From positions 1 to 37,889 of IMG/VR virus record IMGVR_UViG_3300033076_000254: a DNA stretch of 37,889 bases. One strand, written 5' to 3'. Made by a program: the position numbers and the translations under genes. The DNA is from a virus. Lineage: Duplodnaviria; Caudoviricetes. Under the pieces are notes generated by a model. The model saw nothing but the letters and a program-made list of their open reading frames with translations, had not been told where the DNA came from and did no database searches. Positions 1 through 36,862 of this stretch are shown piece after piece. Numbering within the stretch: position 1 is the stretch's first letter; each line of letters starts with the position of its first letter.

Positions 1-461
1 AATAGCATACTGCTTGACACCTTCTTGGCTTTACGTCTCAACTTGTCCACCACCTTGTTACTTATCTCCACCATGTGTCTCAACACCTCGGTCCTGTTCA
101 TGTCGTCCTTGATATGCTCAAGTCCACCAAGCACCAAACCCTCTGTTAACACAATCGCTGTTGTCGTACCATCACCCGCTGAGGTCGCTGTCTTGTCTGC
201 AGCCTCCTTCATCATCTTAACCGCAAGGTTCTCGCTTGGGTCAATTAGGTCAATTGACTTAGCAACAGTCACACCATCCTTTGTCACCGTAATGCCATGG
301 GTATGATGCGGACTCTCAATCAAGACAGTGTTACCACTTGGTCCTAATGTTGACTTAACAGCCTTTGACATCTTAACTACTCCACTGATTAATTTCTTTC
401 TGCCGTCCGAACCGAACTGCAAATCCTTGGGTGAGTACCCAATTCCTGATGTTTCTACCAT
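1..461 (-). CDS. groEL: Chaperonin GroEL (Cpn60), N-terminal part, truncated by window edge
   Basis: Manual translation from ATG at 461: MVETSGIGYSPKDLQFGSDGRKKLISGVVKMSKAVKSTLGPSGNTVLIE...ITVTKDGVTVAKSI...AADKTATSAGDGTTTAIVL. TLGP, TKDGVTVA and GDGTTT are hallmark GroEL motifs. Absent from the ORF track because it runs off the edge. Confidence 0.95.
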   Translation of the reverse strand, partial: MVETSGIGYSPKDLQFGSDGRKKLISGVVKMSKAVKSTLGPSGNTVLIESPHHTHGITVTKDGVTVAKSIDLIDPSENLAVKMMKEAADKTATSAGDGTTTAIVLTEGLVLGGLEHIKDDMNRTEVLRHMVEISNKVVDKLRRKAKKVSSSML

Positions 462-963: not shown

Positions 964-1221
964 CTAATCCATTTCCGGTCCTTCCATCATCTCTGAACGA
1001 ATGTTACCTAAGAATACAGCCTCAGACATCATCTGAACCTTCTCAGCTTTCTTAATGGCTTTCTTCATATCAGCAGCTTGTCTGATACCCGTAACTCCAT
1101 CAGGACGATTGTTAATTTCCATACCACCATTGACAGTCAAACCAAAGTTCGCCCCTCTCTGTTGGTAGATGCTGTTCGACAAATCCTTCTTGTAAACAGA
1201 ATCTCTAAATTTTAGTTTCAT
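964..1221 (-). CDS. Hypothetical protein (85 aa)
   Basis: ORF with an A-rich upstream context, a near-consensus TATCTTTA box at 1259-1266 and a terminator downstream. Same strand as groEL. Confidence 0.65.
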   Translation of the reverse strand: MKLKFRDSVYKKDLSNSIYQQRGANFGLTVNGGMEINNRPDGVTGIRQAADMKKAIKKAEKVQMMSEAVFLGNIRSEMMEGPEMD

Positions 1222-1401
1222 AATAATTGTTTTAAAACGTGCACGAAATATTTCAGGGTAAAGATAATAAATTTATTAGATACCCGGAGTGTGGAGGCTA
1301 TAGGGGCGTTTGACGACAGGTAGCCGGTGCCGAAAATGACTTTTTTTTCAAGGGGTGGGGTATCGTTTCGGCAATCCCCTTGCGAAATTTTTAGCTTTTT
1401 G

Positions 1402-1689
1402 CCTCCGCTCATTGTGTACTAATGAGCCCCATCGATGGAGGTGACCGCCTCCGCTCCTCCGTTTCCGTCCTCCGCTCCCGTCCTCCTTGCTTTATTGCCT
1501 CCGCTCCCCTTGATTGCTCCCCTGTATTCAATCCTCAAGCCCTTTGTAGTGTCTTTAAAGACACAAAAAGAGAGAAAAGGCACAAAGAGAGACGGCTTAG
1601 CCTCCTCCCCGTCCTTTGATTGTCTAAACTTTGTGCTCCCCTTGTTCATTACTTAAGCCTCTGAAAACCTGTAATCTTTCCGCTCATTG
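1402..1689. repeat. Pyrimidine-rich short-repeat region (CCTCCGCTC x4) bounded by 11-bp direct repeats TCCGCTCATTG
   Basis: CCTCCGCTC at 1402, 1448, 1469 and 1498. TCCGCTCATTG at 1404-1414 and 1679-1689. Lies between the divergent arms. Confidence 0.6.
1549..1564. repeat. Conserved 16-bp palindrome GTGTCTTTAAAGACAC, copy 1
   Basis: Perfect palindrome, identical to the copies at 4167 and 5973. Confidence 0.9.
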
Positions 1690-1709
1690 AAAAAAAAGTT
1701 TAAAAATAT

Positions 1710-1739
1710 TTTGCGGAATAAAGTAATTGACTAAATTTG
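1710..1739 (+). promoter_or_regulatory. Bacteroidota sigma-A type early promoter (-33 TTTG / -7 TAAATTTG)
   Basis: TTTG at 1710-1713, 18-nt spacer, TAAATTTG at 1732-1739, 40 nt before the first plus-strand gene. Confidence 0.7.
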
Positions 1740-1778
1740 TACAAGAAATAAACAATCAATAATCAAAATTTAAACAAC

Positions 1779-2414
1779 ATGAGCAATTTACTATCAATCG
1801 AAAGTGCCTTTTTGAACTTGCCACAAGTCAAACAGGCTTTGAACTTGCAAGAAATCAGAGCGGTTCAAAGAACAATTACAAACGCCAAAAAGAAAAAGTT
1901 CGAGCAAACCCTTGCTTTGAGCAAGTTAGTCACTCAAGCCGTAGCATGGTTTCAATCAGAGGAGGGCAAACGTGCTTGTGCCGAGGAGGGTATCAGTTGG
2001 AGCAATGAGGAAATCGGGCTGAAAGTTTTCGGGTGGCAAAAATCATTTTTTTACAAGGTGGTGAAAGCAGGACGTCTCGAGGCGGACGTGGTGGAAACTT
2101 TCAAAACAAAGTGCGATGAGGCGGAGGCACAAGGGCAAGAGCCAAACCGCTCCCTTGAGGGCTTACTTAAGTTTGCTAAGCAGGTGGAAACAGGTAGCGA
2201 AGCAAGTGGACAAGGTGAGGAGGGTGAAAGTGAAAGTGAAAATGAGCCACAAATTGAGACACGTGTTGAAACCATCTTGACTTTCACGTATAAGAGCGAG
2301 AGCGGAAACGTTTCAGTTCGTATCGATGCGGAAGGCAATGTTAAAACCACAAACAGCCCCGAGCAAATTCGTGAGGCAATAGCTGTATTAAATTTTTCAC
2401 TACAAAATCAATAA
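1779..2414 (+). CDS. Hypothetical early protein (211 aa), possible HTH segment
   Basis: First ORF after the promoter. Helical, with segment SNEEIGLKVFGWQKSFFYKVVK resembling an HTH and an acidic linker. Confidence 0.8.
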   Translation: MSNLLSIESAFLNLPQVKQALNLQEIRAVQRTITNAKKKKFEQTLALSKLVTQAVAWFQSEEGKRACAEEGISWSNEEIGLKVFGWQKSFFYKVVKAGRLEADVVETFKTKCDEAEAQGQEPNRSLEGLLKFAKQVETGSEASGQGEEGESESENEPQIETRVETILTFTYKSESGNVSVRIDAEGNVKTTNSPEQIREAIAVLNFSLQNQ

Positions 2415-2416
2415 TC

Positions 2417-3286
2417 ATGAGCGGTATCAATTACACTATCACCGGAAATCGTGAGCGTGGTCAAGTTCAAAACTACCATCGCAAACCTAATCCTTTGTTC
2501 TTGAATAAGACTAAGCACAACATAGACGTGGCAGGTCTTAAGAAAGCCGAGCGAGGCACTGCAATCAAATTTGAGGGCGGTGACTATGAGGCAAAATTTA
2601 CCATCGGTTTCGAGGTGGAAAAAAATCAATTGCATCGTGGGGCGGTGAGAGAATACGAATTGTTTTGCGGTTTCGAGCGAGATGGGTCATGCGGTTATGA
2701 GGCGGTGACTCACGTGCTCCCTTTGTTGCCATCGGGTCAATGGCGTACAAAAGTTTATGACATGATGCACAAGGCTGAAAAAATCATCGATGACCGATAC
2801 AGCCCGAGCGATAGACGTTGCGGAGGTCATATTACGATTGCGGTGGATGGCTTAACAGGTGAGCAATTACGTGAGGCGGTGAGAAAATACAGCGGTATCA
2901 TTTACGCTCTATTTCGCAACAGGTTAAAAAATAGCTATTGCGGTGCAAACAACAGGATGCAAGCAAGCCACGAGGCTCAAAACTATCACCATAAGTATCA
3001 GGTAGCTCTTGTGAAAGGCAATTGCCTTGAGTTTAGACTCCCAAGCCGTTTTGAGAGCGTTAAGCAAATGATGAGACGATATGAGCTATTTTATGAGGTA
3101 GTGAATGCATCGGTGTCAAACATGAGCCACGATGCACTCCTTAAGAGACTTAAGCCTGTAATCGTGTCAATGTACAACGGGGACGTGGCAAGAGCGGAGG
3201 AGGTAATGACCCTTGCGAAGTATTTCAGAAAGTTTATCCTAACAGGTGAGATACATCAAGACATTATGCAATACGTGAGCCGATAA
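2417..3286 (+). CDS. Putative amidoligase (COOH-NH2 ligase, glutamine synthetase/GCS-like fold)
   Basis: Motifs FTIGFEVE, RDGSCGYEAVT, CGGHITI and LEFRL match the GxExE / DGS-E / CGxHxH / EFR pattern of the amidoligase-2 family. Confidence 0.75.
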   Translation: MSGINYTITGNRERGQVQNYHRKPNPLFLNKTKHNIDVAGLKKAERGTAIKFEGGDYEAKFTIGFEVEKNQLHRGAVREYELFCGFERDGSCGYEAVTHVLPLLPSGQWRTKVYDMMHKAEKIIDDRYSPSDRRCGGHITIAVDGLTGEQLREAVRKYSGIIYALFRNRLKNSYCGANNRMQASHEAQNYHHKYQVALVKGNCLEFRLPSRFESVKQMMRRYELFYEVVNASVSNMSHDALLKRLKPVIVSMYNGDVARAEEVMTLAKYFRKFILTGEIHQDIMQYVSR

Positions 3287-3293
3287 ATTTTCA

Positions 3294-3317
3294 GGGAGTG
3301 TCTTCAAAGACACTCCC
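3294..3317 (+). repeat. Conserved hairpin, copy 2 (core GTGTCTTCAAAGACAC at 3298-3313, stem extended by GGGA/TCCC)
   Basis: gggagtgtctt-ca-aagacactccc, 7 nt after the amidoligase stop and abutting hammerhead 1. Confidence 0.9.
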
Positions 3318-3368
3318 ACTATCGGAGGGTGAGTGCCCTCCCTGATGAGTCCAAAAGGACGAAATAGT
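3318..3368 (+). ncRNA. Type III hammerhead ribozyme 1 (predicted cleavage after C3323, AUC)
   Basis: Stem III ACUAU/AUAGU. Stem I GGAGGG-UGAGUG-CCCUCC. Core CUGAUGA at 3342-3348. Stem II GUCC-AAAA-GGAC. GAAA at 3361-3364. Confidence 0.93.
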
Positions 3369-3391
3369 AAACCACAAAAAAATCAAATCAA

Positions 3392-3586
3392 ATGAAAAAG
3401 CAAATCATCACAAAAATCGCAATCCTGTTTAGTGCAGGTTTCTTCGGGTCGTTAGTGGCTATTCAATCCATCTATGACTTAGACGTGCCCATGGGCATCA
3501 CCATCCCGATGCTAATTGTATCGGTGTTATTGGTGGCGGTGTCTATGCAATGGCTTGACAAGGAGTTAAAGAAAATCATTAAATAA
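3392..3586 (+). CDS. Small membrane protein (64 aa, two predicted TM helices)
   Basis: Two hydrophobic stretches and basic termini. Start preceded by aatcaaatcaa. Confidence 0.75.
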   Translation: MKKQIITKIAILFSAGFFGSLVAIQSIYDLDVPMGITIPMLIVSVLLVAVSMQWLDKELKKIIK

Positions 3587-3594
3587 AATCAATT

Positions 3595-4176
3595 ATGAGA
3601 CAGATAACACGCAAAATTGTGGGTGCGTTCGAGAGACGTGAGCCCCTAAGAATTGACAACAGCCGTACAGATGGCACGAGCCTATGGCTATTCGGCAACA
3701 GGATTGCCGAGTGGCGTGGGGATGGGTTATGGATAAGCAATGCAGGATGGGACAGCAGGACAACAAACGAGCGTCTCAATGGCTTGACAGGAGTGCACGT
3801 AAGAAAGCAAAGAGGTACGCTCCTATTGAATGACAGGGTGTGGGATGGTAGATGGGTGCACGTGGATGCGTGGAATGATGGCATCGAGTACGTGGGAGGT
3901 GGCTCAGTACGTGAGGAGAATGTACAGGAGCGTGACTTTGACGTGACGAGCGAATGGATGCATGAGTTCGGGTACAGTAAGCCCGTTCACAGTGTCTTTC
4001 ATACGTTGGTGGAGGCAAACCTTGAGGCGGTGGAGCAGAAGCTAAGCGAGGCAGGGATACCATCACGCAGGATGGAATCAGATACCGAAGGAATGTACAA
4101 GCCGAACTATTTCATCGTAGTTTATCCGGAGGACGTTGAGAGAGCGTTGAATATTTTAAATGGTGAGTGTCTTTAA
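3595..4176 (+). CDS. Hypothetical phage protein (193 aa)
   Basis: Long ORF in operon context. Its TAA stop lies at the centre of palindrome copy 3. Confidence 0.8.
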   Translation: MRQITRKIVGAFERREPLRIDNSRTDGTSLWLFGNRIAEWRGDGLWISNAGWDSRTTNERLNGLTGVHVRKQRGTLLLNDRVWDGRWVHVDAWNDGIEYVGGGSVREENVQERDFDVTSEWMHEFGYSKPVHSVFHTLVEANLEAVEQKLSEAGIPSRRMESDTEGMYKPNYFIVVYPEDVERALNILNGECL

Positions 4177-4184
4177 AGACACTC
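4165..4184 (+). repeat. Conserved hairpin, copy 3 (GAGTGTCTTTAAAGACACTC)
   Basis: Perfect 20-bp palindrome directly abutting hammerhead 2. Confidence 0.9.
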
Positions 4185-4234
4185 CCGTCCTCGAGTGTGT
4201 TACTCGGGCTGATGAGTCCTAAAGGACGAAACGG
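4185..4234 (+). ncRNA. Type III hammerhead ribozyme 2 (predicted cleavage after C4189, GUC)
   Basis: Stem III CCGU/ACGG. Stem I CUCGAGU-GUGUU-ACUCGGG. CUGAUGA at 4209-4215. Stem II GUCC-UAAA-GGAC. GAAA at 4228-4231. Confidence 0.93.
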
Positions 4235-4257
4235 AAACCATCTTAATCATAATCAAA

Positions 4258-4452
4258 ATGACAAAAGAACAAATCAACATCGAGCAAGAACGTAATGAAA
4301 CTATTCAGGACGTAATTGACAGACTCCTTTACTTGCCTGAAGACAAGCTAAAAGAGTACAAGCACTATCTCAATTTATTGGTGTCAGTTTACCCGATTGA
4401 CATGAAGATTGAGAACGGAATCAGAATTTATCACGTATCAAAAAGAAAGTAA
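4258..4452 (+). CDS. Hypothetical protein (64 aa)
   Basis: ORF 23 nt after hammerhead 2, with an aatcaaa start context. Confidence 0.7.
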   Translation: MTKEQINIEQERNETIQDVIDRLLYLPEDKLKEYKHYLNLLVSVYPIDMKIENGIRIYHVSKRK

Positions 4453-4453
4453 C

Positions 4454-4576
4454 ATGAAAGTTTTATCAGTAGTATTAATCGTGTCGTTTCTTACATCATG
4501 TAGTGTGGAGTATAAAATCTCCCACTACAAAAGACCACGCAAACAAACTTGCATCGTAGGGAATCGACCATTTTAA
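4454..4576 (+). CDS. Putative small lipoprotein (40 aa)
   Basis: Manual translation MKVLSVVLIVSFLTSC-SVEYKISHYKRPRKQTCIVGNRPF: signal peptide ending in lipobox LTSC. Fills the gap between neighbouring genes exactly. Confidence 0.6.
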   Translation: MKVLSVVLIVSFLTSCSVEYKISHYKRPRKQTCIVGNRPF

Positions 4577-4587
4577 AATCAATCAAC

Positions 4588-4749
4588 ATGGAAAGTCAAC
4601 ATATGTTTAACGTGTACTATTCAGGCAAGTGGTTGTGTTGGATAGTTGCCCACACAAAGTGGGAGGCAGTGGATAAAACCTATTACAAATTGGTTGCCCA
4701 AAGCCACAGCGTGGATAGAAAAAAGATGAAGGCAGTCAAGGTTTATTAA
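4588..4749 (+). CDS. Hypothetical protein (53 aa; start re-assigned to MESQHMF)
   Basis: ATG at 4588 preceded by aaaatcaatcaac, like other early genes. Confidence 0.6.
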   Translation: MESQHMFNVYYSGKWLCWIVAHTKWEAVDKTYYKLVAQSHSVDRKKMKAVKVY

Positions 4750-4756
4750 AAATAAA

Positions 4757-4788
4757 TTTGGCAATGTCGAAATCTTGTCGTATCTTTG
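4757..4788 (+). promoter_or_regulatory. Bacteroidota sigma-A promoter (-33 TTTG / -7 TATCTTTG)
   Basis: TTTG at 4757-4760, 20-nt spacer, TATCTTTG at 4781-4788. Confidence 0.75.
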
Positions 4789-4853
4789 TTCAATATTAGT
4801 TTAAATCAGGGTTCTACGCCTCTCAAGGTGTTGCCCACAAATCAAATCAAATC

Positions 4854-5957
4854 ATGTGTGTAATCATTATCAAGCAGACAGGGAAGCACGTTCCCCAAGA
4901 GGTTGCAAAGACCTCAGCACGAATCAATCCTCATGGGTTGGGAATCATTTGGCTCGATACTTTCGAGGTAACTTATCACAAGTCAGCGGAGTACAAGGTG
5001 CTCGATACCAAGAGACCATTCATTGCTCATTTTAGATATGCGACCATTGGTGCAATCAACAAAGAGAATACCCATCCATTCAGATGCGGGAGCAACAAAC
5101 AGGAGTGGCTCATGATGAACGGGACTATCAGAGCGTTGGGTAATCATAAGAAGAGTGACTCAAAAGTATTGGCAGAGAATTTGGGTGAGATACCACGCCA
5201 CAAGTGGAAGAAAGAGTTGGAGCAGTATGAGTGCAGGTTCGTTACGATTAACACGCACAGCAGGACGTATCAGATTTATAACAAAGAGTTGTGGGTGCAG
5301 AGAGATGGCGTGTGGTATAGCAAGGACAATGTGTTGGAGGATAATTTGGTTGCGGTGTATGGTACCCTAAAGAAAGGGTACCACAATTACCACAGCTACT
5401 TGACGAGTTCGAAGTATGTGGGGAAGGGTGAGACCAAAGAAAAGTATCCGTTGATTATTCAAGGGTTGCCTTACTTGATTGAGAAGCGTGGAGTTGGGCA
5501 CAATGTGGAGGTGGACGTGTTCAAGGTGAGCAGTGGAGTACTTGCACAGCTTGACAGGTTGGAGGGGCATCCGAATTGGTACAGGCGTAAGCAGATTGAC
5601 ATCGTGACCAAAGGCAAGGTGTTAAAGTGTTGGATTTATTTTAACTTGAGGGAGGATGAGAAAGGTAAGCAGTGGCATAAGACATACACGCAAGAGCCTA
5701 ACAGAGGCAGATGGTATGAGGAGGAAGATGAGCGTGAGACAGAGGTGTCATTCAGTAAATATACTGAACGTCAGTTGAACTTGCTTGACATCTTTGAGGA
5801 TGATGATTGTGAAGATTGTGGTTTTGATATAGTAAATGAGAAGCCCATTTGTGTTGATTGTTTTCATGACTTAGAGCATGATGGGTTTGCGAACTACCAT
5901 TGTTGTGGTTGCGATGGTTGGTTCACCGAAGATGAGGTTCTGAGATTCAGACCTTAG
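4854..5957 (+). CDS. Class II (Ntn) glutamine amidotransferase fused to a gamma-glutamylcyclotransferase (AIG2-like) domain and a C-terminal Cys-rich putative Zn-binding tail
   Basis: GATase II motifs: N-terminal M-C, NPHGLG, HFRYATIG..NTHPF, MNG. GGCT motifs: VAVYGTLKKG, LDRLEGHPNWYRR. Tail: CVDC..HCCGC. Confidence 0.85.
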   Translation: MCVIIIKQTGKHVPQEVAKTSARINPHGLGIIWLDTFEVTYHKSAEYKVLDTKRPFIAHFRYATIGAINKENTHPFRCGSNKQEWLMMNGTIRALGNHKKSDSKVLAENLGEIPRHKWKKELEQYECRFVTINTHSRTYQIYNKELWVQRDGVWYSKDNVLEDNLVAVYGTLKKGYHNYHSYLTSSKYVGKGETKEKYPLIIQGLPYLIEKRGVGHNVEVDVFKVSSGVLAQLDRLEGHPNWYRRKQIDIVTKGKVLKCWIYFNLREDEKGKQWHKTYTQEPNRGRWYEEEDERETEVSFSKYTERQLNLLDIFEDDDCEDCGFDIVNEKPICVDCFHDLEHDGFANYHCCGCDGWFTEDEVLRFRP

Positions 5958-5967
5958 CTTCGGAGTT

Positions 5968-5993
5968 GGGTGGTGTCTTTAAAGACACTACCC
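5968..5993 (+). repeat. Conserved hairpin, copy 4 (core 5973-5988, extended GGGTG/TACCC with a G-U pair)
   Basis: gggtggtgtcttt-aaagacactaccc directly abutting hammerhead 3. Confidence 0.9.
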
Positions 5994-6046
5994 TACTATC
6001 GCAAGATGTGTATCTTGCCTGATGAGTTCGAAAGAACGAAATAGTA
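5994..6046 (+). ncRNA. Type III hammerhead ribozyme 3 (predicted cleavage after C6000, AUC)
   Basis: Stem III UACUAU/AUAGUA. Stem I GCAAGAU-GUGU-AUCUUGC. CUGAUGA at 6019-6025. Stem II GUUC-GAAA-GAAC. GAAA at 6038-6041. Confidence 0.93.
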
Positions 6047-6067
6047 AACAATCAAAATCATAATCAC

Positions 6068-6349
6068 ATGAAGTTCAATCACGACAGCAAGACCATGACA
6101 GGTGCATTCAATATTCAAATGAGTGCAGATGAGATGGCAGAAAAAATTTCAGACATCGTCCGAGAGTGGGCATTGTCAGAGCAAGGAGAAAAAATCAGTC
6201 TATTGGCTGAGCGTTTAGAAAGCAAGTTGCCTTATGAGGTTATCTTGTTATTAGCCACGAAGGAAGTGCATGGTAAGGTTATCAGTTCACTATCCGAGTT
6301 GGAAGGTGTGCTATCAAAAATTATTAGTGAACAAGCAAAACTTAATTAA
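6068..6349 (+). CDS. Hypothetical protein (93 aa)
   Basis: ORF 21 nt after hammerhead 3. Confidence 0.75.
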   Translation: MKFNHDSKTMTGAFNIQMSADEMAEKISDIVREWALSEQGEKISLLAERLESKLPYEVILLLATKEVHGKVISSLSELEGVLSKIISEQAKLN

Positions 6350-6355
6350 ATTGCT

Positions 6356-6499
6356 ATGAACATTTTTATCTTAGCCTTAAGTTGTTTTGTAAGTGGGATG
6401 GTAGGTTGCTTCGTTGGAGCCTACATCACTTACAAGTCAATGAAAATAATCGTGAGACGCAAGGTCGCACAAATTTTAAAAAACCAAAATCACAAATGA
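6356..6499 (+). CDS. Small single-pass membrane protein (47 aa)
   Basis: Manual translation MNIFILALSCFVSGMVGCFVGAYITYKSMKIIVRRKVAQILKNQNHK. Fills the gap between neighbours. Confidence 0.6.
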   Translation: MNIFILALSCFVSGMVGCFVGAYITYKSMKIIVRRKVAQILKNQNHK

Positions 6500-6500
6500 G

Positions 6501-6728
6501 ATGAACATCTTTAAAATCAGAACAAGCAGTTGGGATGAAGAGGACTTTATCCTTGCTACGTCATTAACAGAAAAGCAAATCCGCTCAGTTATTCAGCCTA
6601 TGGTAGATGATGAGAGAGAGAATGAGTTTGTGTTTACGAATGAAGACTACGTGAACATATTGAAAGATGCGTACCCTAAAGCTGTAATCCTTTCTGATGG
6701 CGGAGATACTCAGGAAATAATCTTTTAG
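6501..6728 (+). CDS. Hypothetical protein (75 aa)
   Basis: Tightly packed ORF. Confidence 0.7.
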   Translation: MNIFKIRTSSWDEEDFILATSLTEKQIRSVIQPMVDDERENEFVFTNEDYVNILKDAYPKAVILSDGGDTQEIIF

Positions 6729-6730
6729 TT

Positions 6731-6898
6731 ATGAGAAAGTATTTTCGAATAGCTAAAGCGGTGTTGTACCTATGTGCAGAGTTGGTGTGGTTCGTTGCCA
6801 TATCATTGCCGTTGGCACTTACCTTATTAGTAATCGTTGAAGTAATATCATTAATCAAATCAATTGTAATCAAATGTCAAAAAACCATTACGAGATGA
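6731..6898 (+). CDS. Small membrane protein (55 aa)
   Basis: Manual translation MRKYFRIAKAVLYLCAELVWFVAISLPLALTLLVIVEVISLIKSIVIKCQKTITR. Confidence 0.55.
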   Translation: MRKYFRIAKAVLYLCAELVWFVAISLPLALTLLVIVEVISLIKSIVIKCQKTITR

Positions 6899-7194
6899 GT
6901 GCGGTTGCCTCCGCCAATCTTGAGATAGACTACCTACGAGGTCAGTTAAATGAGGCAAATGCAAAATTAAAAGATGAGAAAGTTGCACGTGAGTTGCTCA
7001 GAAAGAAAGGGTACTACGTTGAGAACCTATGGCACGTTGATGACGTGTTGCAAAATTACTCATGCAGTAAGGAAGTTGCTCAGGAAGTTCTTGAGAGAGC
7101 ACTTAAGAATGAGGCAACAATGGAACAGGTGTGGCTCGCAATAGATGACGTGGCTGACGCCATGGAGATTAAAGAAAATCAAAATCAAATTTAA
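6874..7194 (+). CDS. Hypothetical protein (106 aa)
   Basis: ORF with an aatcaa start context and a coiled-coil N-terminal part. Confidence 0.75.
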   Translation: MSKNHYEMSAVASANLEIDYLRGQLNEANAKLKDEKVARELLRKKGYYVENLWHVDDVLQNYSCSKEVAQEVLERALKNEATMEQVWLAIDDVADAMEIKENQNQI

Positions 7195-7195
7195 T

Positions 7196-7417
7196 ATGGA
7201 AGCAGTACTAAATGCTACGCCAAAAGCTACGTTCTACTTGAACGAATTGGCATCAGAGATAGCAGAATTTGTTATCGAAAAAAAATACGAAGGGACAGGA
7301 GTTGAATTAGTTGAAAACATAAAGGGCACGATGGTCTATTCAGCCTTTATACAGGAGGAATATGATACCATTTATGATGAAGTGCTTGAGTATCTAACTA
7401 ACAATCAAATCAAATAA
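7196..7417 (+). CDS. Hypothetical protein (73 aa; start re-assigned to MEAVLN)
   Basis: ATG at 7196 directly after the previous stop. Confidence 0.7.
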   Translation: MEAVLNATPKATFYLNELASEIAEFVIEKKYEGTGVELVENIKGTMVYSAFIQEEYDTIYDEVLEYLTNNQIK

Positions 7418-7421
7418 TCAA

Positions 7422-7811
7422 ATGGAAGTTAAAATCAACATCAGCAGAGAAGTCTTAGAAGACGTATTTGTTACAGCATTAGAGGGAGGAAGTAACTATT
7501 GGTACTTTCTACCCGACCACTCAATAGAAGCAATCCGTAGAGCGGTGCCTAAAGAGGAAGACCCGTACTTGAGTACGGCAATACTCAAAGCAATCCTTGA
7601 CCATGACGTGAAGATTGCTGTCAATGACGCAGATGACGAGGACGAAGTAATCGGTGTCATCACAAAAGGAACAATGCAAACCCGCCTCCAAATGCTTGCA
7701 GACAGCCCAAACAAATGGGCATTGGATGCACACATAAAAGAAGAGGGAGATGCAGACTCAGCGGACATTGTATTTCAGTACATAACCATGGGTGAAGTAA
7801 TCTATGGATAG
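7422..7811 (+). CDS. Hypothetical acidic phage protein (129 aa)
   Basis: Well-packed ORF (ALEGGSNYW...DADSADIVFQ). Confidence 0.8.
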   Translation: MEVKINISREVLEDVFVTALEGGSNYWYFLPDHSIEAIRRAVPKEEDPYLSTAILKAILDHDVKIAVNDADDEDEVIGVITKGTMQTRLQMLADSPNKWALDAHIKEEGDADSADIVFQYITMGEVIYG

Positions 7812-8028
7812 TTTTAAACCAAATAATATGGAAAATAATCAAGAAACATTTATTGACAGGTTAAAGAAGTTGCAAGAGCAGGCTTCTGTTTTAATTCAGG
7901 AGTTGGAAGCGAATCCAAACTTTCCTGAGGGTCACGTAATCACCAAGGAGTCTTGGGACAATGCAGATAAAATCATCCACGATGGTTTTGTGTATGTTAA
8001 ATACAGCGACCTATTGTTTTATAAATAA
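7804..8028 (+). CDS. Hypothetical protein (start at 7804 or 7828)
   Basis: ORF in operon context. Confidence 0.65.
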   Translation: MDSFKPNNMENNQETFIDRLKKLQEQASVLIQELEANPNFPEGHVITKESWDNADKIIHDGFVYVKYSDLLFYK

Positions 8029-8043
8029 ATTGTACTATCTTTG
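8014..8043 (+). promoter_or_regulatory. Bacteroidota promoter (TTG...TATCTTTG)
   Basis: TTG at 8014-8016, 19-nt spacer, TATCTTTG at 8036-8043. Confidence 0.6.
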
Positions 8044-8065
8044 TACGAAATTTAATCAAATTAAC

Positions 8066-8081
8066 GGGAGCTTCGGCTCCC
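8066..8081 (+). other. cUUCGg tetraloop hairpin in the 5' leader
   Basis: GGGAGC-TTCG-GCTCCC with no U-tract, so more likely a stabilizing leader hairpin than a terminator. Confidence 0.6.
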
Positions 8082-8096
8082 ATAAACTTTAATCAA

Positions 8097-8339
8097 ATGA
8101 CAGCAAGTTTCACATTAGAAGAGTTCAGTAACACAGGGCACTTTACAGGAAGAGAGGCGTACCTTGAAAAGAATCCTGACACACAGCTACACGCAGACTG
8201 CACAGACGTTGTTCAGTATATCGGTGGGCATATCATTCAAGTTTTAAAATCAGGAGACTTTATGGTGGATGAGGACTTTAAAAGTGTCTCATTAGATGAA
8301 GCAGAAGGTTGGATGTTTTTAAAAAAATTTAACAAATAA
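8097..8339 (+). CDS. Hypothetical protein (80 aa)
   Basis: ORF downstream of a promoter. Confidence 0.7.
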   Translation: MTASFTLEEFSNTGHFTGREAYLEKNPDTQLHADCTDVVQYIGGHIIQVLKSGDFMVDEDFKSVSLDEAEGWMFLKKFNK

Positions 8340-8364
8340 TTGAACGATGTATTGACATATTCAC

Positions 8365-8372
8365 TATATTTG
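8365..8372 (+). promoter_or_regulatory. -7 box TATATTTG upstream of the replication/recombination genes
   Basis: Matches TAnnTTTG, 21 nt before the ATG at 8394. Confidence 0.5.
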
Positions 8373-8393
8373 TTTTCAAATCAAATCAGAGTT

Positions 8394-8696
8394 ATGAAGC
8401 AGGATGTTTTTAATCAGTATGTAGAAAGGGTTGCAGACCTTTTCAGCATTAACAAGGAGGACATATTCTCCAAATCAAAGAAGAGAGAGTTAGTAGATGC
8501 TCGTCACTTGGTGTATTACTTATGTGCTAAGAGACCAATGCAAATCACATACATTCAGAAGTACATGAACGAAGCAGGCTACGAGATTAAGCACTCATCA
8601 ATCATTCACGGAATCTCCTCAGTTGAACAGAAGATAGCAGAGGACAAGGACTACGTGTCAATAGTGAAGGAAGTTGAGCGTGCAGTGTTTATTTAG
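8394..8696 (+). CDS. DnaA domain IV (C-terminal HTH)-like DNA-binding protein (100 aa; start re-assigned to MKQDVF)
   Basis: VADLFSINKEDIFSKSKKRELVDARHLVYYLC...HSSIIHGISSVE resembles the DnaA_C pattern (SkR.r.v..aRq.amYL...dHsTv.ha). Confidence 0.7.
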   Translation: MKQDVFNQYVERVADLFSINKEDIFSKSKKRELVDARHLVYYLCAKRPMQITYIQKYMNEAGYEIKHSSIIHGISSVEQKIAEDKDYVSIVKEVERAVFI

Positions 8697-10147: not shown

Positions 10148-10163
10148 GTGTCTTCAAAGACAC
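10148..10163 (+). repeat. Conserved hairpin, copy 5 (GTGTCTTCAAAGACAC)
   Basis: Identical to the copy 2 core, 5 nt upstream of the tRNA-like element. Confidence 0.9.
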
Positions 10164-10168
10164 AAGGA

Positions 10169-10260
10169 AGTCAGATAGCTTAATGGTCATAATTGAATTG
10201 ACCCTTGAGGAATTAGAGCACTCGAAAGAGATGGTGTGGGTTCGATTCCCACTCTGACTA
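10169..10260 (+). ncRNA. tRNA-like RNA with no anticodon loop and an enlarged D-loop
   Basis: Acceptor AGTCAGA/TCTGACT plus A. UA linker. D-stem GCTT/GAGC with AATGGT plus a 27-nt insert. Anticodon arm reduced to CTC-GAAA-GAG. T-arm GTGGG-TTCGATT-CCCAC. Confidence 0.7.
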
Positions 10261-10335
10261 CAACCATTCACGGGCTTAGCTTCAGAGGTCTGTGCTTGGT
10301 ACAAATAGACTGAGGCAACAAATAAATTTAAGAAC

Positions 10336-10679: not shown

Positions 10680-10706
10680 GGGGGAGTGAAAACTTCCCCT
10701 TTTTTT
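10680..10706 (+). terminator. Intrinsic terminator
   Basis: GGGGGAG-TGAAAA-CTTCCCC followed by T7. Confidence 0.8.
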
Positions 10707-10726
10707 ACCTCCAATGCGTGACGAAA

Positions 10727-14088: not shown

Positions 14089-15536
14089 TTGAACGCATAT
14101 CTGCATACAGCAACAAAGCAATGTGGGATTACTGCGAAATACTTAAGAGGGTAGTTACTCAGACCAAGGAGATAAAAGTTGGTAGGGGCAAACAGATAGA
14201 GATTCTGAAAGTACCCAAGTATAACACAGAAAAGCACGTTGTCGATAAGATTGTCGAGAGTTGCGAGTATTATAAAAACCTATACGAAATGGAAAGCAAA
14301 TCAAATGTGACGTTCAGAGATTATCAGAGCGACATCATAAACAAAGGCTCACAAATATTAATGAAGCATCGCTTCCTGTATCTTGCCATGGAGGTGAGAA
14401 CAGGTAAGACACTTACGAGTCTTGGCATAGCTGAGCAAGTAAGAGCAGAGCGTGTGTTATTCATTACCAAGAAGAAAGCACTGAGCACAATCTCAGACGA
14501 CTACTCAATGCTGAGTCCATCGTATTATATGTGCGTGATTAATTATGAGAGTCTGCACACCGTAATTGATGAATGGAAGTGGGACTTGATTATCTGCGAT
14601 GAGGCACATGGTATGGGAGCTTTCCCTAAACCAAGTGGAAGAGCAGAGATGGTAGCTGAGGTGATTAAGAAGTGTAAACCTATGGTGATACTACTTAGTG
14701 GGACACCAACACCTGAGAGTTATTCTCAGATGTATCATCAAGTCTATGCCATCCCTAACAATCCATTCGCTGAGTTCAAAAACTTCTACCGTTTCTGTGA
14801 CAAGTATGTCAACGTGAAGCAACGAAAGATTAATGGGCTATTCGTCAAGGATTACAGCGGTGGACTTGATACCATCATCAAAGCAATGGAGCCGTACACG
14901 ATTAACTACACTCAGCAGGAGGCAGGCTTTATGGCTGAGACCAAGGAAGAGATATTAGAAGTGGAGATGAAGCCGATGACTTATGCCATGATAAAAAAAT
15001 TAAAGAAAGATTTAGTGATAGAAGGCAAGGAAGAAATAATTTTGGCAGACACTCCGGTGAAGTTAATGATGAAGGTGCATCAGTTGAGCAGCGGCACGAT
15101 TAAGTTCGAGAGCGGCAACAGCATGGTACTTGACTTGAGCAAAGCTGAGTTCATCAAAGAGCAGTTTGAGGGATGCAAGATTGGAATCTTCTACAAGTTT
15201 AAAGAAGAATTAAATGCACTCAAGGAAGTATTTGGAGATGAACTGACAACAGAGTTGAGTGTCTTTGAAGACACTCACAAGAACATTGCTCTGCAGATTG
15301 TAAGTGGACGTGAGGGAATCAGTTTGAAGCAAGCCGAGTACTTGGTCTATTACAACATTGACTTCAGTGCTACGAGTTATTGGCAGAGCAAAGACCGTAT
15401 GACAACCAAAGACAGATTGGAGAATCAAGTGTATTGGATATTTGCTAAAGGCGGTATCGAACATGACATCTACAAAGCTGTTACAAAGAAGAAAGATTAT
15501 ACTGTAAACCACTTTAAAAAAGATTTTTATGATTAA
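14085..15536 (+). CDS. SNF2-like superfamily 2 helicase (possible internal start at 14289)
   Basis: FRDYQ (Q motif), MEVRTGKT (I), IICDEAH (II), LSGTP (III), SGREGISL (V), QSKDR (VI). Confidence 0.85.
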   Translation: MIERISAYSNKAMWDYCEILKRVVTQTKEIKVGRGKQIEILKVPKYNTEKHVVDKIVESCEYYKNLYEMESKSNVTFRDYQSDIINKGSQILMKHRFLYLAMEVRTGKTLTSLGIAEQVRAERVLFITKKKALSTISDDYSMLSPSYYMCVINYESLHTVIDEWKWDLIICDEAHGMGAFPKPSGRAEMVAEVIKKCKPMVILLSGTPTPESYSQMYHQVYAIPNNPFAEFKNFYRFCDKYVNVKQRKINGLFVKDYSGGLDTIIKAMEPYTINYTQQEAGFMAETKEEILEVEMKPMTYAMIKKLKKDLVIEGKEEIILADTPVKLMMKVHQLSSGTIKFESGNSMVLDLSKAEFIKEQFEGCKIGIFYKFKEELNALKEVFGDELTTELSVFEDTHKNIALQIVSGREGISLKQAEYLVYYNIDFSATSYWQSKDRMTTKDRLENQVYWIFAKGGIEHDIYKAVTKKKDYTVNHFKKDFYD

Positions 15537-16028: not shown

Positions 16029-16312
16029 AAGAACAGAAAGTACAAGCTAAGAAAATAAAGGAACTCGAAGCCGAAGGGTACTACGTTATTAAATTAACCA
16101 TGACCAATAAGAACGGGATACCTGACTTGCTTGCGATACCAAGGAACAGTGACGTGGTATTCATAGAAGTAAAGGCTACCAATGGGAAGCTGTCAAAGCT
16201 CCAAGAGTATCGATTAAAAGAACTCCAAAACCACGGAGTACGTGTGGAAGTATTTAGAGAACCTAAAAAAGAAGAAGATGCAAGACAAAAAAGAGATAGA
16301 GGAAATGATTGA
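16025..16312 (+). CDS. VRR-NUC domain nuclease (Holliday-junction resolvase-like)
   Basis: GIPDLL...FIEVK..GKLSKLQ. Confidence 0.85.
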   Translation: MKEQKVQAKKIKELEAEGYYVIKLTMTNKNGIPDLLAIPRNSDVVFIEVKATNGKLSKLQEYRLKELQNHGVRVEVFREPKKEEDARQKRDRGND

Positions 16313-16790
16313 TATAATCAAGAACGTATTGGATGTAGACATAAGAACTAAGTCAGGCAAAAGGAAGTACGTGAATGGTAGATTTATCTATAGTAAGATT
16401 ATGACAGACAGGGGATATGGCATAAGTTTATTGGGGAAGCATATAAAAAAGCACCACTCAAGTATCCTCCATTATAGAGATACTGCCAATGATTTGTTGG
16501 AAACTGACCCATTATTTGCAGAGAGATATATTGCTTGTAAGGAAAAATTCATGTCAGACAAGGGACCTTTGTCTAAAGTATCAAGCAAAGATGATTTAAT
16601 TAATCAAATGGATGCATTAATTTTGAGTAGGAACGCCTTATTAGAAGAGGTGCAAAAGCATAAAAGACTGAAGAATATAATCGAGTTCATAGACAGTCGG
16701 ACACCAAGGGGTAAAGAGTCTTTCGTGCTTAGGAAAATTAACTTAATGTTTAATGGAATAACCGACTATGACCGAGAACTTGAATGGTGA
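16278..16790 (+). CDS. Second DnaA-domain-IV-like HTH protein (start at 16278 or 16305)
   Basis: KSGKRKYVNGRFIYSKIM...LGKHIKKHHSSILHY has the same pattern as 8394-8696, plus a coiled-coil C-terminal part. Confidence 0.6.
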   Translation: MQDKKEIEEMIDIIKNVLDVDIRTKSGKRKYVNGRFIYSKIMTDRGYGISLLGKHIKKHHSSILHYRDTANDLLETDPLFAERYIACKEKFMSDKGPLSKVSSKDDLINQMDALILSRNALLEEVQKHKRLKNIIEFIDSRTPRGKESFVLRKINLMFNGITDYDRELEW

Positions 16791-27362: not shown

Positions 27363-27773
27363 TTATAAAACTTTTATCATTTCGCCTGTATAAGAATCAC
27401 CCTTGATATAACCAAGGTCTTCGTACATTCCTATAAGACTTTCGTTTTTGATTAATGCGTAACTATATTTACTTCCTGATTTTTTACAAATCTCTGTCAA
27501 CGCTGACACCAATAACTTAATGGCGTCTTTTCTTTGTGGTTTCTTGGTATATTCCTTGTTTGATATTATCCAATCTACCCACGATACTTTGGAATTTGTA
27601 ACATACATGAACCCGGCACATACAGGTGTTTCCTCATCGTAGATGATTATACCACCCTTACCATTGTTGGGAAGAAAGTCTCTTTGCGGAGGCGTCCATC
27701 CCCACTGATTCCACCATCCTACGAGAATTTCATCGTAATCGGTTTCGTTCAGTTCTCGTATAATTAATTCCAT
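27363..27773 (-). CDS. GNAT-like protein (136 aa)
   Basis: IRELNETDY start, PVCAGF, WIISN, YEDLGY. Occupies the slot between tail and ejection genes, as in many podoviruses. Confidence 0.55.
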   Translation of the reverse strand: MELIIRELNETDYDEILVGWWNQWGWTPPQRDFLPNNGKGGIIIYDEETPVCAGFMYVTNSKVSWVDWIISNKEYTKKPQRKDAIKLLVSALTEICKKSGSKYSYALIKNESLIGMYEDLGYIKGDSYTGEMIKVL

Positions 27774-29237: not shown

Positions 29238-32200
29238 TTAAGTTGTACATATTGGTAACATAGACCAAAATGATTGGTGAGTTAATGAAGTGCTTGATGT
29301 CGCTATCACGGTACCACCTGAGTCTCTCAACTGAAGTGTAAAGTACACAGGAGTTGCAGAGCCACTTGGTTCGTAATAAGTTATCTGACCAAATGAAGGG
29401 TCTGATTGTGATATAGTAACCGTTGCAGAAGAAGACGGAGTATCTGTCTGTACAGTTATATAAGAACCTGCCGGAGCATTTGATGTGTTAATTCTATATC
29501 TAACTGTGCAAGCTGCGTTATCATTGCAGTTATTCTCTCTACACTGAGGAGAGCCTAATGATATAGTTGCTACAGCACAATTAGCTTGACATTCTTCTAA
29601 TGTTGCATAAAGACCACTACCATTGCCCGGGTCTACACAGGTCCCATCTACACAATTGTATGATTCAACGGCAATGCTACAATTGCAGCAAACATCTTCT
29701 ATACTTACGTTTGAATAACACAATGTCACAGGAATAGCTTGTCTAAAATCCCAAATGAAATACAAATAGTTTTGAAGTGTTGGCACTGTGAACTCTGCAT
29801 AGTTATTTGTACCACTACCTTGGTTTGGCGTAGCTGTAGTAGCTAATCCCAACAAAGTATTCATATCTGTGGTATTGTTACCATAAAGCGTATTAGATGT
29901 ATGGTATTTAAACTCATCTTCAGCAGGGTTGAATACAAATGTATCCGTTGCAAACTGATTAGTAATTAAGCTAACTATACTTCCTGCAGGAGGGAATGCT
30001 CCTGAACCAATAGGTCCTGTAGTTACATTGTATCTTGACACAAGAGGAGAGGTAGTTCCTGACGCAAAAGTAACAGCACTTGACTGCAATGGAGAAACAA
30101 ATGCACCATCTACATATCTGTATTGAGTATGGATGGTTTCTCCTGAATCGTAATCATTAGTTAATACTATCTGAATAATAGTTAACTCTGCAGTTTGAGG
30201 ACAATCTGCAAGGATATTTAATATCATATCGCCTCTGTAATTTATTGTTACAGTTGCAGTCTCAACAGATACGTTGTCCTTGTTAAATGTTATTGTTCCG
30301 TCTGTAGATACGAATCCTGTTGTATCGGTTGTACCATCGTATTCAATTACTATTTCAAACTCACTACCTTCTGTTATTGAAGTCAAGCTATAGTTAATGT
30401 CAGTTAAACCAACAGTTGGTCCCAAATCAATGCAATACGTTGTAGACTTGGTCTCCTCTGCTATCGTAGATAATGTAAATGTCTGAGATATACCACACTC
30501 TAAACACTCAGGATTAGATGGCAATTCAATCTCATTACTTGATAACACATACTCATTCATGTATGGGTCAAATCCTCCGAGCTTCTGAGTATTAAATGCA
30601 GTATTAAACTCATCTCTAAACCATGTTCTCATGTTCATCTCAGAGATGACTTTTAGTTGGTCTTGAGCGTATGAATCTCCTCTTAATTGAATAACAGCAC
30701 CACGTTTTACGTCAGTAAAGAATCTGTCATATCCCCACTGAACATAACTTTCAGGATTAAAACTGATGCCATACTTCTCAGTACGAGCAATCTGCGTACC
30801 CAATACTTGAGGCACAGACGCAACTACACCTCCGCCTGTTGAGTCAGAGATTAAGTTCTTGTCAGCTAATACGTATGAAATCTTATCTTCTTGTAATACT
30901 AATACATCTGTCATACGACCATCCATGATATAGATGTCGCCAAATGATGGTTCACAAACCTTGTAGTTCAGTAAACCTAAGTTAAATTCATTTAGCTTAT
31001 TTACGTTTGACTCAGCACTATACACGCCACTATATGTGATGTCAGCAAATCTATCTGCCGCTTTATAATCTTGAGCAGACACACTTGTTACTCTATTACC
31101 AAAGTTGAATGAGTTACCCGTAATCGAATCTCTTATCTTATAACTCTCCGCTCCGTTTCCAAAAGCAAAGCAGTTAAAGAACTTTGTATCTACAATTGCA
31201 GAAATGCCTCCACTAATGTTTTGGTCTTGGATATTACCCAAGTGATTACCGTTAACAATAGGGAATGACATCTCATTCTCAAAGAACACATCAGGCAAAG
31301 CCTCACTTGGCTCTGTCTCAAATATGATAGTCTTGTCAGAACGGAATACAGTAAAGTTTACTTCTACATTTGAAGCACGAGCGTTAGGGTATCCAATACC
31401 TGTACAAGGCAATGTCCCTGTAACCATCAATTGTAATTGATTGGTACTTGTATTTCTGTAAAACTTATAATAATTAATACATAAATCATTTGGTATATCA
31501 CCTGCCGTGTTTGTTATTGTTGAAATAAACTGATTGTCGGGAATGCATTGCCCTGCTCCTGCATATCTCGTACCATCGTTCAAGAATTGCTCAATGTTAT
31601 CACCAATAAACCAATCATACATATTATCGTATGAGTTGCTTGATATAAGGGTCTTCTCTAAAGTATTGCGTCTTTCTTCACAACTATCTCCTACACCACT
31701 ACGCCATTGCTTTATGCTCATTACAATGCGGCTACCTGCAGGGATATTATAATCCACCCATGCAGATGTAGCTGTATCGTATCTATTCATTGGGTAGTAT
31801 AATACAGGATAGCCTCCACCTCTTGGAGCCGTCTCAGTAATCTTGCCCGGAGCAATAATAGCTAACTCATCCTGAACAATATTGAAGCTGTTTGGATTAA
31901 TCTTAGCGTAAACACCTGCAGGAATTGGTATCATCACCGTTGGGTCTAATGCACTTGGTATCTCTAAGAACCCTGCTGCTTGTGAAGTCTTCTCAAGAAT
32001 GGTTGCGTACACACAAGATGTAGTTGCACCATTTGAATCAGCCTTTACAATAAGTCTATCCCCTGCTTCAACTTTACGTGCATTCTCTCCTTCAAGTAAG
32101 AAGTATGCATTGTTTGTTACAGGGTCTTGGAAGAATATACTTACATAAATTGTTTCATAGTTTTCTTCGTCCGGCTTAATAACAAACTTATATCTTGTCG

Positions 32201-36829: not shown

Positions 36830-36862
36830 AAAAAAAGGAGAGTGTCTTTGAAGACACCCTCC
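36830..36862 (-). terminator. Capsid-gene terminator containing conserved hairpin copy 6 (core 36842-36857)
   Basis: Minus strand reads GGAGG-GTGTCTTCAAAGACAC-TCTCC-TTTTTTT. Confidence 0.85.

Follow-up and report, generated by a model that had tools for sequence, protein, structure and literature searches.

The window analysed here is the whole of virus record IMGVR_UViG_3300033076_000254 (Duplodnaviria; Caudoviricetes), a stretch of 37,889 nucleotides (nt; 37.9 kb) that is about 62% complete, with early genes read from the plus strand from position 1779 onwards and structural genes on the minus strand. Three cassettes punctuate the early arm, each made up of a hairpin with the same 16-nt core running directly into a type III hammerhead ribozyme motif (Table 1). 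They had been picked out in a sequence-only reading, made without database searches, as a candidate system by which the phage cuts its own polycistronic early message, and all three were found at the positions given there, with complete cores and predicted cuts. The capsid protein shares 52% identity with its counterpart in the Flavobacterium elemo phages and 45% with the one in Cellulophaga phage phi38:1, a crAss muzzle domain and GroEL are encoded in the window, and the matches in genome collections are two contigs of metagenome-assembled genomes (32 and 56 kb) from Flavobacteriaceae and Cytophagales, so that the host of this uncultured aquatic phage is probably a member of the Bacteroidota. 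The GroEL chaperonin gene (1-461, minus strand) is truncated by the contig end.

Table 1. Features of the 37,889-nt window discussed in the text.
Feature	Positions	Strand	Remarks
Cassette 1 hairpin	3294-3317	+	palindrome 3298-3313; 7 nt past stop of gene 2417-3286
Type III hammerhead 1	3318-3368	+	predicted cut after 3323; AUC 3321-3323; next ATG 3392; RF00008 E 6.6e-7
Cassette 2 hairpin	4165-4184	+	palindrome 4167-4182; stop codon 4174-4176 of gene 3595-4176 inside hairpin loop
Type III hammerhead 2	4185-4234	+	predicted cut after 4189; GUC 4187-4189; next ATG 4258; no Rfam match
Cassette 3 hairpin	5968-5993	+	palindrome 5973-5988; 10 nt past stop of gene 4854-5957
Type III hammerhead 3	5994-6046	+	predicted cut after 6000; AUC 5998-6000; next ATG 6068; RF00008 E 1.1e-5
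Palindrome copy	1549-1564		230 bp upstream of first early gene, upstream of promoter
Palindrome copy	10148-10163	+	5 nt before tRNA-like element
Palindrome copy in helicase gene	15259-15274		orthologous codons hold each lineage's own palindrome
Palindrome copy	36842-36857	-	between capsid gene and next late gene; hairpin then U run
tRNA-like element	10169-10261	+	acceptor stem and T arm preserved, D region enlarged, anticodon arm aberrant; tRNA-Val by ARAGORN
Promoter-like site, Bacteroidota type	1710-1739	+	before first early gene
Second promoter-like site, Bacteroidota type	4757-4788	+	
First strong intrinsic-terminator-like site of early arm	10680-10707	+	
First early gene, candidate palindrome reader	1779-2414	+	211 aa; no Pfam or PHROG match
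Gene preceding cassette 1	2417-3286	+	no Pfam or PHROG match
Leader hairpin of amidotransferase gene	4809-4836	+	core 4816-4831 stands where relatives have palindrome
Glutamine amidotransferase / gamma-glutamyl cyclotransferase fusion gene, preceding cassette 3	4854-5957	+	

All three units have the CUGAUGA and GAAA cores, UH at the junction and three stems, of which stems I and II are closed by loops and stem III is open; no other hammerhead-like core was found on the plus strand of the window. Stem I has 6-7 bp and a UG-rich loop that begins with U, stem II has 4 bp and an NAAA loop, and stem III pairs 3318-3322 with 3364-3368 in unit 1, 4185-4188 with 4231-4234 in unit 2 and 5994-5999 with 6041-6046 in unit 3. 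The units end 23, 23 and 21 nt before the next start codon, respectively, and the cassettes fold with z-scores of -5.7, -4.1 and -5.0 against shuffled sequences. An assembly artefact is ruled out by contigs of an independent run (X8), which match positions 1200-4032, 4006-4863 and 5057-8432 with no differences. A contig joint in the same run that skips 3314-4202 was set aside, having just 20 nt on one side, and contig breaks near 3309-3335 are no evidence of cleavage, since they lie at a repeat. The cassettes were also considered as promoters or intrinsic terminators, a reading that was rejected, as neither a promoter consensus (of the Bacteroidota or the sigma-70 type) nor a U run was found at the three units. 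An N4-type hairpin promoter was rejected on the grounds that no RNA polymerase was seen by eye in the open reading frame (ORF) list of the complete relative G001 and that host-type promoters exist.

Relatives of the phage were collected in two ways. A motif scan of IMG/VR returned 116 stretches, a set biased by its query, which hold 124 distinct type III hammerheads (none in shuffled sequences), 105 of them with the palindrome that forms the hairpin core. The other set consists of 80 related loci chosen by the amidotransferase protein, and here a hammerhead is present in 74, with all 145 matches on the early sense strand. The genomes compared in the following are the window and 37 others, 15 from the motif set and 22 from the protein set (three only partial), making 38. 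Across 71 distinct type III sequences the core is fixed and the loops are conserved, and stems I and III are paired in 70-71 of the 71 at most positions, with four to six pair types per position. Such strong compensatory change, as read from this alignment, means selection for ribozyme activity, which the differing but paired stems of the three units had already pointed to. The commonest loop I starts with U and the commonest loop II ends with A, a pattern of sequence only; U in loop I together with A in loop II is the pattern of the loop I-loop II tertiary contact. All 66 type III hammerheads that could be mapped lie at most 7 kb downstream of the first early gene, and the distance from the cut to the start codon is mostly 64-77 nt. 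General concerted evolution of the ribozymes was rejected, since the identity of the variable parts is 0.61 between copies in one genome, 0.61 between genomes at a shared slot and 0.60 otherwise. Units 1 and 3 of the window (3318-3368 and 5994-6046) have a common stem III and AUC triplet; because this combination occurs in 2 of the 71 sequences, both in this window, it suggests one conversion between copies.

The hairpin had originally been regarded as part of an RNA cassette only; its core is a palindrome found genome-wide in a lineage-specific form, with the properties of a DNA operator. There are seven copies in the window, four of them outside the cassettes (chance expectation 0.00016; Table 1). 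The exact palindrome of the window occurs 2-16 times in 40 of 40 motif-set relatives, and each of the 37 relatives has a palindrome 4-18 times, gene interiors included; in other lineages the repeated palindrome is a different one, which is also the version in their ribozyme hairpins. Across lineages there are eleven half-site types in a layout of 5+6+5, and in the 38 genomes 423 sites have a spacer of 6, against 8, 3, 0 and 4 sites at spacers of 4, 5, 7 and 8. Only 67 of the 423 precede a type III hammerhead, and the 115 that lie inside genes have neither flank pairing nor strand bias (59/115). In three genomes (G041, G043 and G056) only the outer 5 bp are fixed and the six central bases are free. 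In 21 genomes a site occupies one and the same codon position of the helicase gene, and G049, G053 and G054 have amino acids altered there to fit the lineage motif; selection on the palindrome thus suffices to alter other proteins. A spacing of one helical turn between two 5-bp half-sites is typical of the sites of dimeric helix-turn-helix proteins. Because of this layout, the fixed 6-bp spacer, the free centre, the unbiased copies within genes and the rewriting of the helicase, the palindrome is probably a DNA site for a dimer.

Some further features of these sites were observed. Similar fixed palindrome sites are present in GroEL, in the large virion protein and in the Sak annealase of relatives, and the central two bases can be genome-specific (G040 has CG at 9 of its 11 sites, and G027 has TA at 6 of its 8). 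G019, G045 and G057 have a second repeated near-palindrome family with AGGTCC/AGGACC half-sites. Downstream of hammerheads at five loci in GTGTC genomes (L018, L031, L047, L071 and L072) are imperfect hairpins similar to the GAGGG-lineage palindrome, which are perhaps relics of modules from another lineage.

Beside hammerheads the palindrome is extended as an RNA stem, with 66 G-U against 4 A-C in the four flanking pairs on the sense strand, and the sense-strand fold is the more stable in 57 of 66 hammerhead-adjacent palindromes. When 69 type III hammerheads were scored for an upstream hairpin (3 of 72 were left out as atypical), the lineage palindrome was found at most 40 nt from the cut in 59, mostly at 9-12 nt. 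Eight of the ten palindrome-free cases have an unrelated hairpin of -10 kcal or better in its place, against 3% of 570 random 38-mers, and a hairpin precedes 67 of the 69 in all. Of 20 type I hammerheads, 15 have the palindrome itself as stem III, which ends 5-11 nt before the cut; two of these, from G053, could be a single element present at both ends of the contig. Nine palindromes, the copy at 10148 in the window among them, stand 4-6 nt before a tRNA-like element, four at slots where other genomes have hammerheads. The tRNA-like elements of relatives keep the acceptor and T arm, are free in between and shrink to about 42 nt; the one in the window is likely a substrate of RNase P. With any of the three kinds of cutter, then, the upstream piece would finish at its 3' end in the same hairpin. 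These comparisons speak for an RNA role of the palindrome besides its probable DNA role. Palindromes are the older and commoner element, and ribozymes and tRNA-like cutters have been added at, or lost from, some of them.

That the palindrome acts in RNA alone, its hairpin protecting 3' ends and marking gene boundaries while a phage RNA-binding protein or nuclease holds its sequence in place, appears unlikely. The G-U extension on the sense strand, the position 5' of the cuts and the biased orientation of the loop beside hammerheads (TCAA 40 against TTGA 1) are all in line with this idea; one palindrome copy is a terminator-like hairpin, and as a palindrome forms the same stem from either strand, both orientations within genes are compatible with recognition as RNA. 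However, the stem is fixed, the loop free and the 6-nt spacer exact, and a fixed stem with a free loop is the opposite of usual hairpin recognition. Moreover, the 115 intragenic sites have no stem extension, proteins have been altered to fit the motif, one site is upstream of the early promoter, and hairpins of unrelated sequence do the same job at eight of the ten palindrome-free hammerheads.

The search for a protein that reads the palindrome led to the first early gene. Out of 41 protein families it shows the highest excess identity between genomes with the same motif, at 0.90, with the next families at 0.84 and 0.78. This covariation test left out the DnaA-like helix-turn-helix genes (8394 and 16296; several paralogues per genome) and five other large or mixed families. 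Its signal peaks at residues 82-93 of the protein, and at matched background the identity of the putative recognition helix is 0.65 in same-motif pairs (n=180) against 0.32 in different-motif pairs (n=238), the pairs not being independent. Q87 is present in 19 of 22 GTGTC genomes and in 0 of 14 others, and the GTCTC motif appears in three separate branches of a quick tree of 33 genomes, each without Q87. The protein is modelled with a predicted local distance difference test (pLDDT) score of 84, and 93 in the domain, where helices 76-84 and 88-98 make residues 76-98 helix-turn-helix-like. Its best structural match is the KorB DNA-binding domain, a weak one (Z 5.1, root-mean-square deviation 2.9 over 75 residues), further matches being KorB-operator and VirB, with 1r71 at Z 4.5 and VirB at Z 4.1. 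The homodimer is predicted with a score of 0.43 against 0.00 for the best control (contact agreement between runs at least 93%, pLDDT at least 80), which barely passes the mark of 0.42, attained by 20 of 30 homodimers of solved structure and by 1 of 23 monomers; helix 86-98 lies outside the predicted dimer interface. Palindrome sites flank the gene in most genomes, at about -190 to -290 bp upstream and, in 26 of 36 genomes, at most 70 nt from its stop. The excess identity, the tracking by Q87, the KorB-like fold, the predicted homodimer and the flanking sites make the first early protein the best candidate reader of the palindrome, a good candidate and not proof.

As to its wider affinities, a search of BFVD with this protein returned its own family only, and an N-terminal CTP-binding ParB/Srx domain was not found, residues 1-141 being all helical in the model and none of 55 members having a ParB match in Pfam. 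The nearest named cluster in the ESM Atlas is DUF3102 (0.92, 142 shared features), which is a lead only, the papers found on DUF3102 being unrelated. Candidate alternative DNA binders are encoded by the small-protein genes at 8394-8696 and 16296-16790, the first of which matches the DnaA C-terminal helix-turn-helix domain.

We consider it probable, from the comparison of genomes and the structural models, that the type III hammerheads cut early RNA and that the palindrome is both the DNA site of a reader dimer and the RNA hairpin of the upstream product. Host polymerase would start at about 1745 and about 4795 and run to the terminator at about 10700, and cuts at 3323, 4189 and 6000, together with RNase P at 10169, would turn the transcript into gene-sized messages. 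Each upstream piece would end like a terminated transcript, with a hairpin and 5-7 nt, and each downstream piece would start with a 5'-OH and an unstructured A-rich leader; such 5'-OH ends would resist decay that depends on a 5'-monophosphate. The first early protein might in turn bind the palindromes at gene boundaries and genome-wide, in the fashion of KorB or of stoperators, and when bound might damp early transcription, as a roadblock or from a distance, organise the genome or exclude kin. A doubtful extension of this proposal is a two-level switch, in which a site free early in infection would allow read-through, with the ribozyme (or RNase P at a tRNA mimic) cutting shortly beyond the hairpin, by a few bases, to yield stable gene-sized messages in the absence of termination; accumulating protein would then make the boundary a roadblock, and pairs of protein and site would define exclusion or immunity groups.

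Several results weigh against the proposal. On the RNA side, the Rfam check advised by the sequence-only reading gave a mixed answer: RF00008 matches units 1 and 3 at 45.3 and 40.9 bits, both below the gathering score of 48.5, and leaves unit 2 unmatched at E up to 1. The low scores bear on filing in the Rfam family, not on membership of the hammerhead class. The active fold lies 0.8, 1.7 and 1.2 kcal above the predicted minimum in units 1-3 (ViennaRNA, with tertiary contacts outside the model), and stem III has a probability of at most 0.01, alternative folds being favoured by 0.8-1.7 kcal. On the protein side, besides the closeness of the next families, the dependence among pairs and the narrow pass of the dimer score, windows as high or higher than the covariation peak occur in three other families among 7897, and G056 and G029 keep GTGTC despite a changed helix. 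The three independent GTCTC genomes have no residue in common in the candidate; a simple residue code for GTCTC was rejected accordingly, with 4 such columns in 8199 elsewhere. The Z of the KorB match is one that chance alone can give for helical bundles, and no significant match was found by Foldseek against the PDB (whole protein and N-domain), among PDB sequences, in Pfam (55 members) or in PHROGs. Finally, in cultured relatives hammerheads occur where neither a repeated palindrome nor the candidate protein is present, so that the ribozyme and palindrome parts are separable.

A different account places the purpose of the ribozyme downstream or in timing, the cut freeing a leader for Shine-Dalgarno-free initiation or speeding the decay of early messages and the hairpin insulating its folding. 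The leaders that follow the ribozymes are rich in A and have almost no structure (0 to -1.8 kcal), their length from cut to start is near-constant, and in the Flavobacterium phage elemoA_1-5B a type III hammerhead precedes the first annotated early gene, all of which would agree with such a role. Insulation gains from unit 2, where scrambling the hairpin arm drops stem I from 0.54 to 0.12, but units 1 and 3 show no such effect, and in type I and tRNA-like elements the palindrome again ends a few nt upstream of the cut, a placement that insulation would not call for. This account seems less likely still than the RNA-only one. Least probable of all, and very improbable, is that the cassettes are short homologies for recombinase shuffling of small early genes, with the ribozymes as passengers, for which speak their place beside variable small genes, the gain and loss of ribozymes at slots, the phage-encoded Sak annealase and the local conversion between units 1 and 3, and against which stand the missing general homogenisation, the strong compensatory change that marks selection for activity and the lack of an internal promoter in the cassettes.

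The genes around the cassettes recur in relatives. The gene before cassette 1 is the second early gene, and its product looks by its motifs like a COOH-NH2 ligase; 29 of 36 genomes have a type III hammerhead behind the orthologue of this gene. Under a strict descriptor, a hammerhead stands behind the amidotransferase gene in 14 of 37. In the leader hairpin of the latter gene (4809-4836) the structure is retained and the palindrome site lost. Short C-rich repeats were seen at 1419-1530, in the divergent gap between the late and early arms and near the likely genome end. Inspection of the G001 ORF list by eye showed no integrase or parABS system, where no whole-genome profile search was made.

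The purpose of bacterial and phage hammerheads has been said, in the portion of the source available, to need further work to define (PMC6765202). The phage family described here provides a natural comparative series, in which type III hammerheads, type I hammerheads and tRNA-like elements swap at fixed gene boundaries. Because these swapping cutters would nearly always leave a hairpin on the upstream product, the series points to mRNA end formation as their function. In vivo mapping of the ends is feasible, as these ribozyme subtypes also occur in two cultured phages, elemoA_1-5B and phi19:3 of Cellulophaga. With the palindrome comes a candidate family of DNA-binding proteins, as yet without a name, that has eleven natural specificity variants. 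If the two-level switch is true, lineage-specific pairs of protein and site would divide this abundant family of Bacteroidota phages, found in aquatic settings, into groups of exclusion or immunity.

In phage T7, with which the sequence-only reading drew an analogy, the early polycistron is cut between genes by host RNase III, which leaves a 3' hairpin. The stems of the window phage have 8-11 bp, and the cut proposed for it is made in cis by a ribozyme, with 5'-OH and cyclic phosphate ends. With the type III hammerheads of RF00008 the units share the full core, the three stems, the topology, the U-first loop I and the A-last loop II; they differ in their scores below gathering, the mRNA context in a DNA phage and the fused 5' hairpin. 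Tandem hammerheads flanking single genes or short blocks have been reported in prophage and phage polycistrons and proposed to process long transcripts, three hammerhead arrays were cleaved in vitro, and an early gene of HF1/HF2 whose 5' end has been mapped is preceded, at 13 nt, by a hammerhead (Perreault et al. 2011, PMC3088659, as far as the accessible part goes). Those arrays have the same clustered, gene-flanking arrangement as the window phage. The proposal in the sequence-only reading of a self-processing early polycistron with 3' hairpins is supported by comparison of relatives, while as a concept it had already been published (PMC3088659). A conserved upstream hairpin, a genome-wide palindrome or exchange with tRNA-like elements is not mentioned in the accessible part of that paper, whose Dataset S1 may hold this subtype. 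Nothing on a hairpin-ribozyme pairing is contained in the available parts of PMC7230728 and PMC5737381, the main text of the latter being without named RAGATH motifs.

Hammerheads are also present, unannotated, in cultured relatives. In elemoA_1-5B (MT497074.1, L339) a type III hammerhead at about 29240-29295, immediately preceded by a T-loop-like motif, and a type I hammerhead at about 27445-27505, further in, lie on the minus strand of the early region; this genome lacks both a repeated palindrome and a homologue of the candidate protein. In phi19:3 (KC821608.1, L341 690-745) a type I hammerhead lies between gp051 and gp050.

For the palindrome, the closest parallels are operators. The OB operators of KorB in plasmid RK2 are 16-bp palindromes located near and far from promoters, according to the consulted part of the source (PMC11790492). 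The candidate system is alike in its 16-bp palindrome, in having a ParB-family DNA-binding fold as best match and in its predicted dimer. It differs from KorB in that the protein has 211 aa and the ParB CTPase domain went undetected, so that no sliding clamp is envisaged, besides the weakness of the match (Z 5.1), and from OB in that the sites are lineage-specific and fused to RNA cutters. The stoperators of cluster A mycobacteriophages are described, in the portions available, as 13-bp, asymmetric, transcription-oriented sites bound by a monomeric repressor in temperate phages (PMC6550527, PMC9283540). By those accounts they resemble the present sites in being many, genome-wide and mostly away from promoters, with a lineage motif that varies with the binding protein, a tracking that is moderate here. 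In contrast, the phage sites are palindromic, number 4-18 per genome and occur in both orientations inside genes. The PeSL cassettes of T4-like phages are repeated stem-loops with a promoter and terminator between variable small early genes, as given in the part of the paper at hand (PMC4122927); the cassettes of the window have the same stem-loop placement, with a ribozyme and no promoter instead. In the literature searched, mainly open papers with supplements excluded, a hammerhead joined to an operator specific to a lineage was not described. That ribozymes punctuate phage polycistrons is known, and the operator layer that the palindrome appears to add to it would be the new part.

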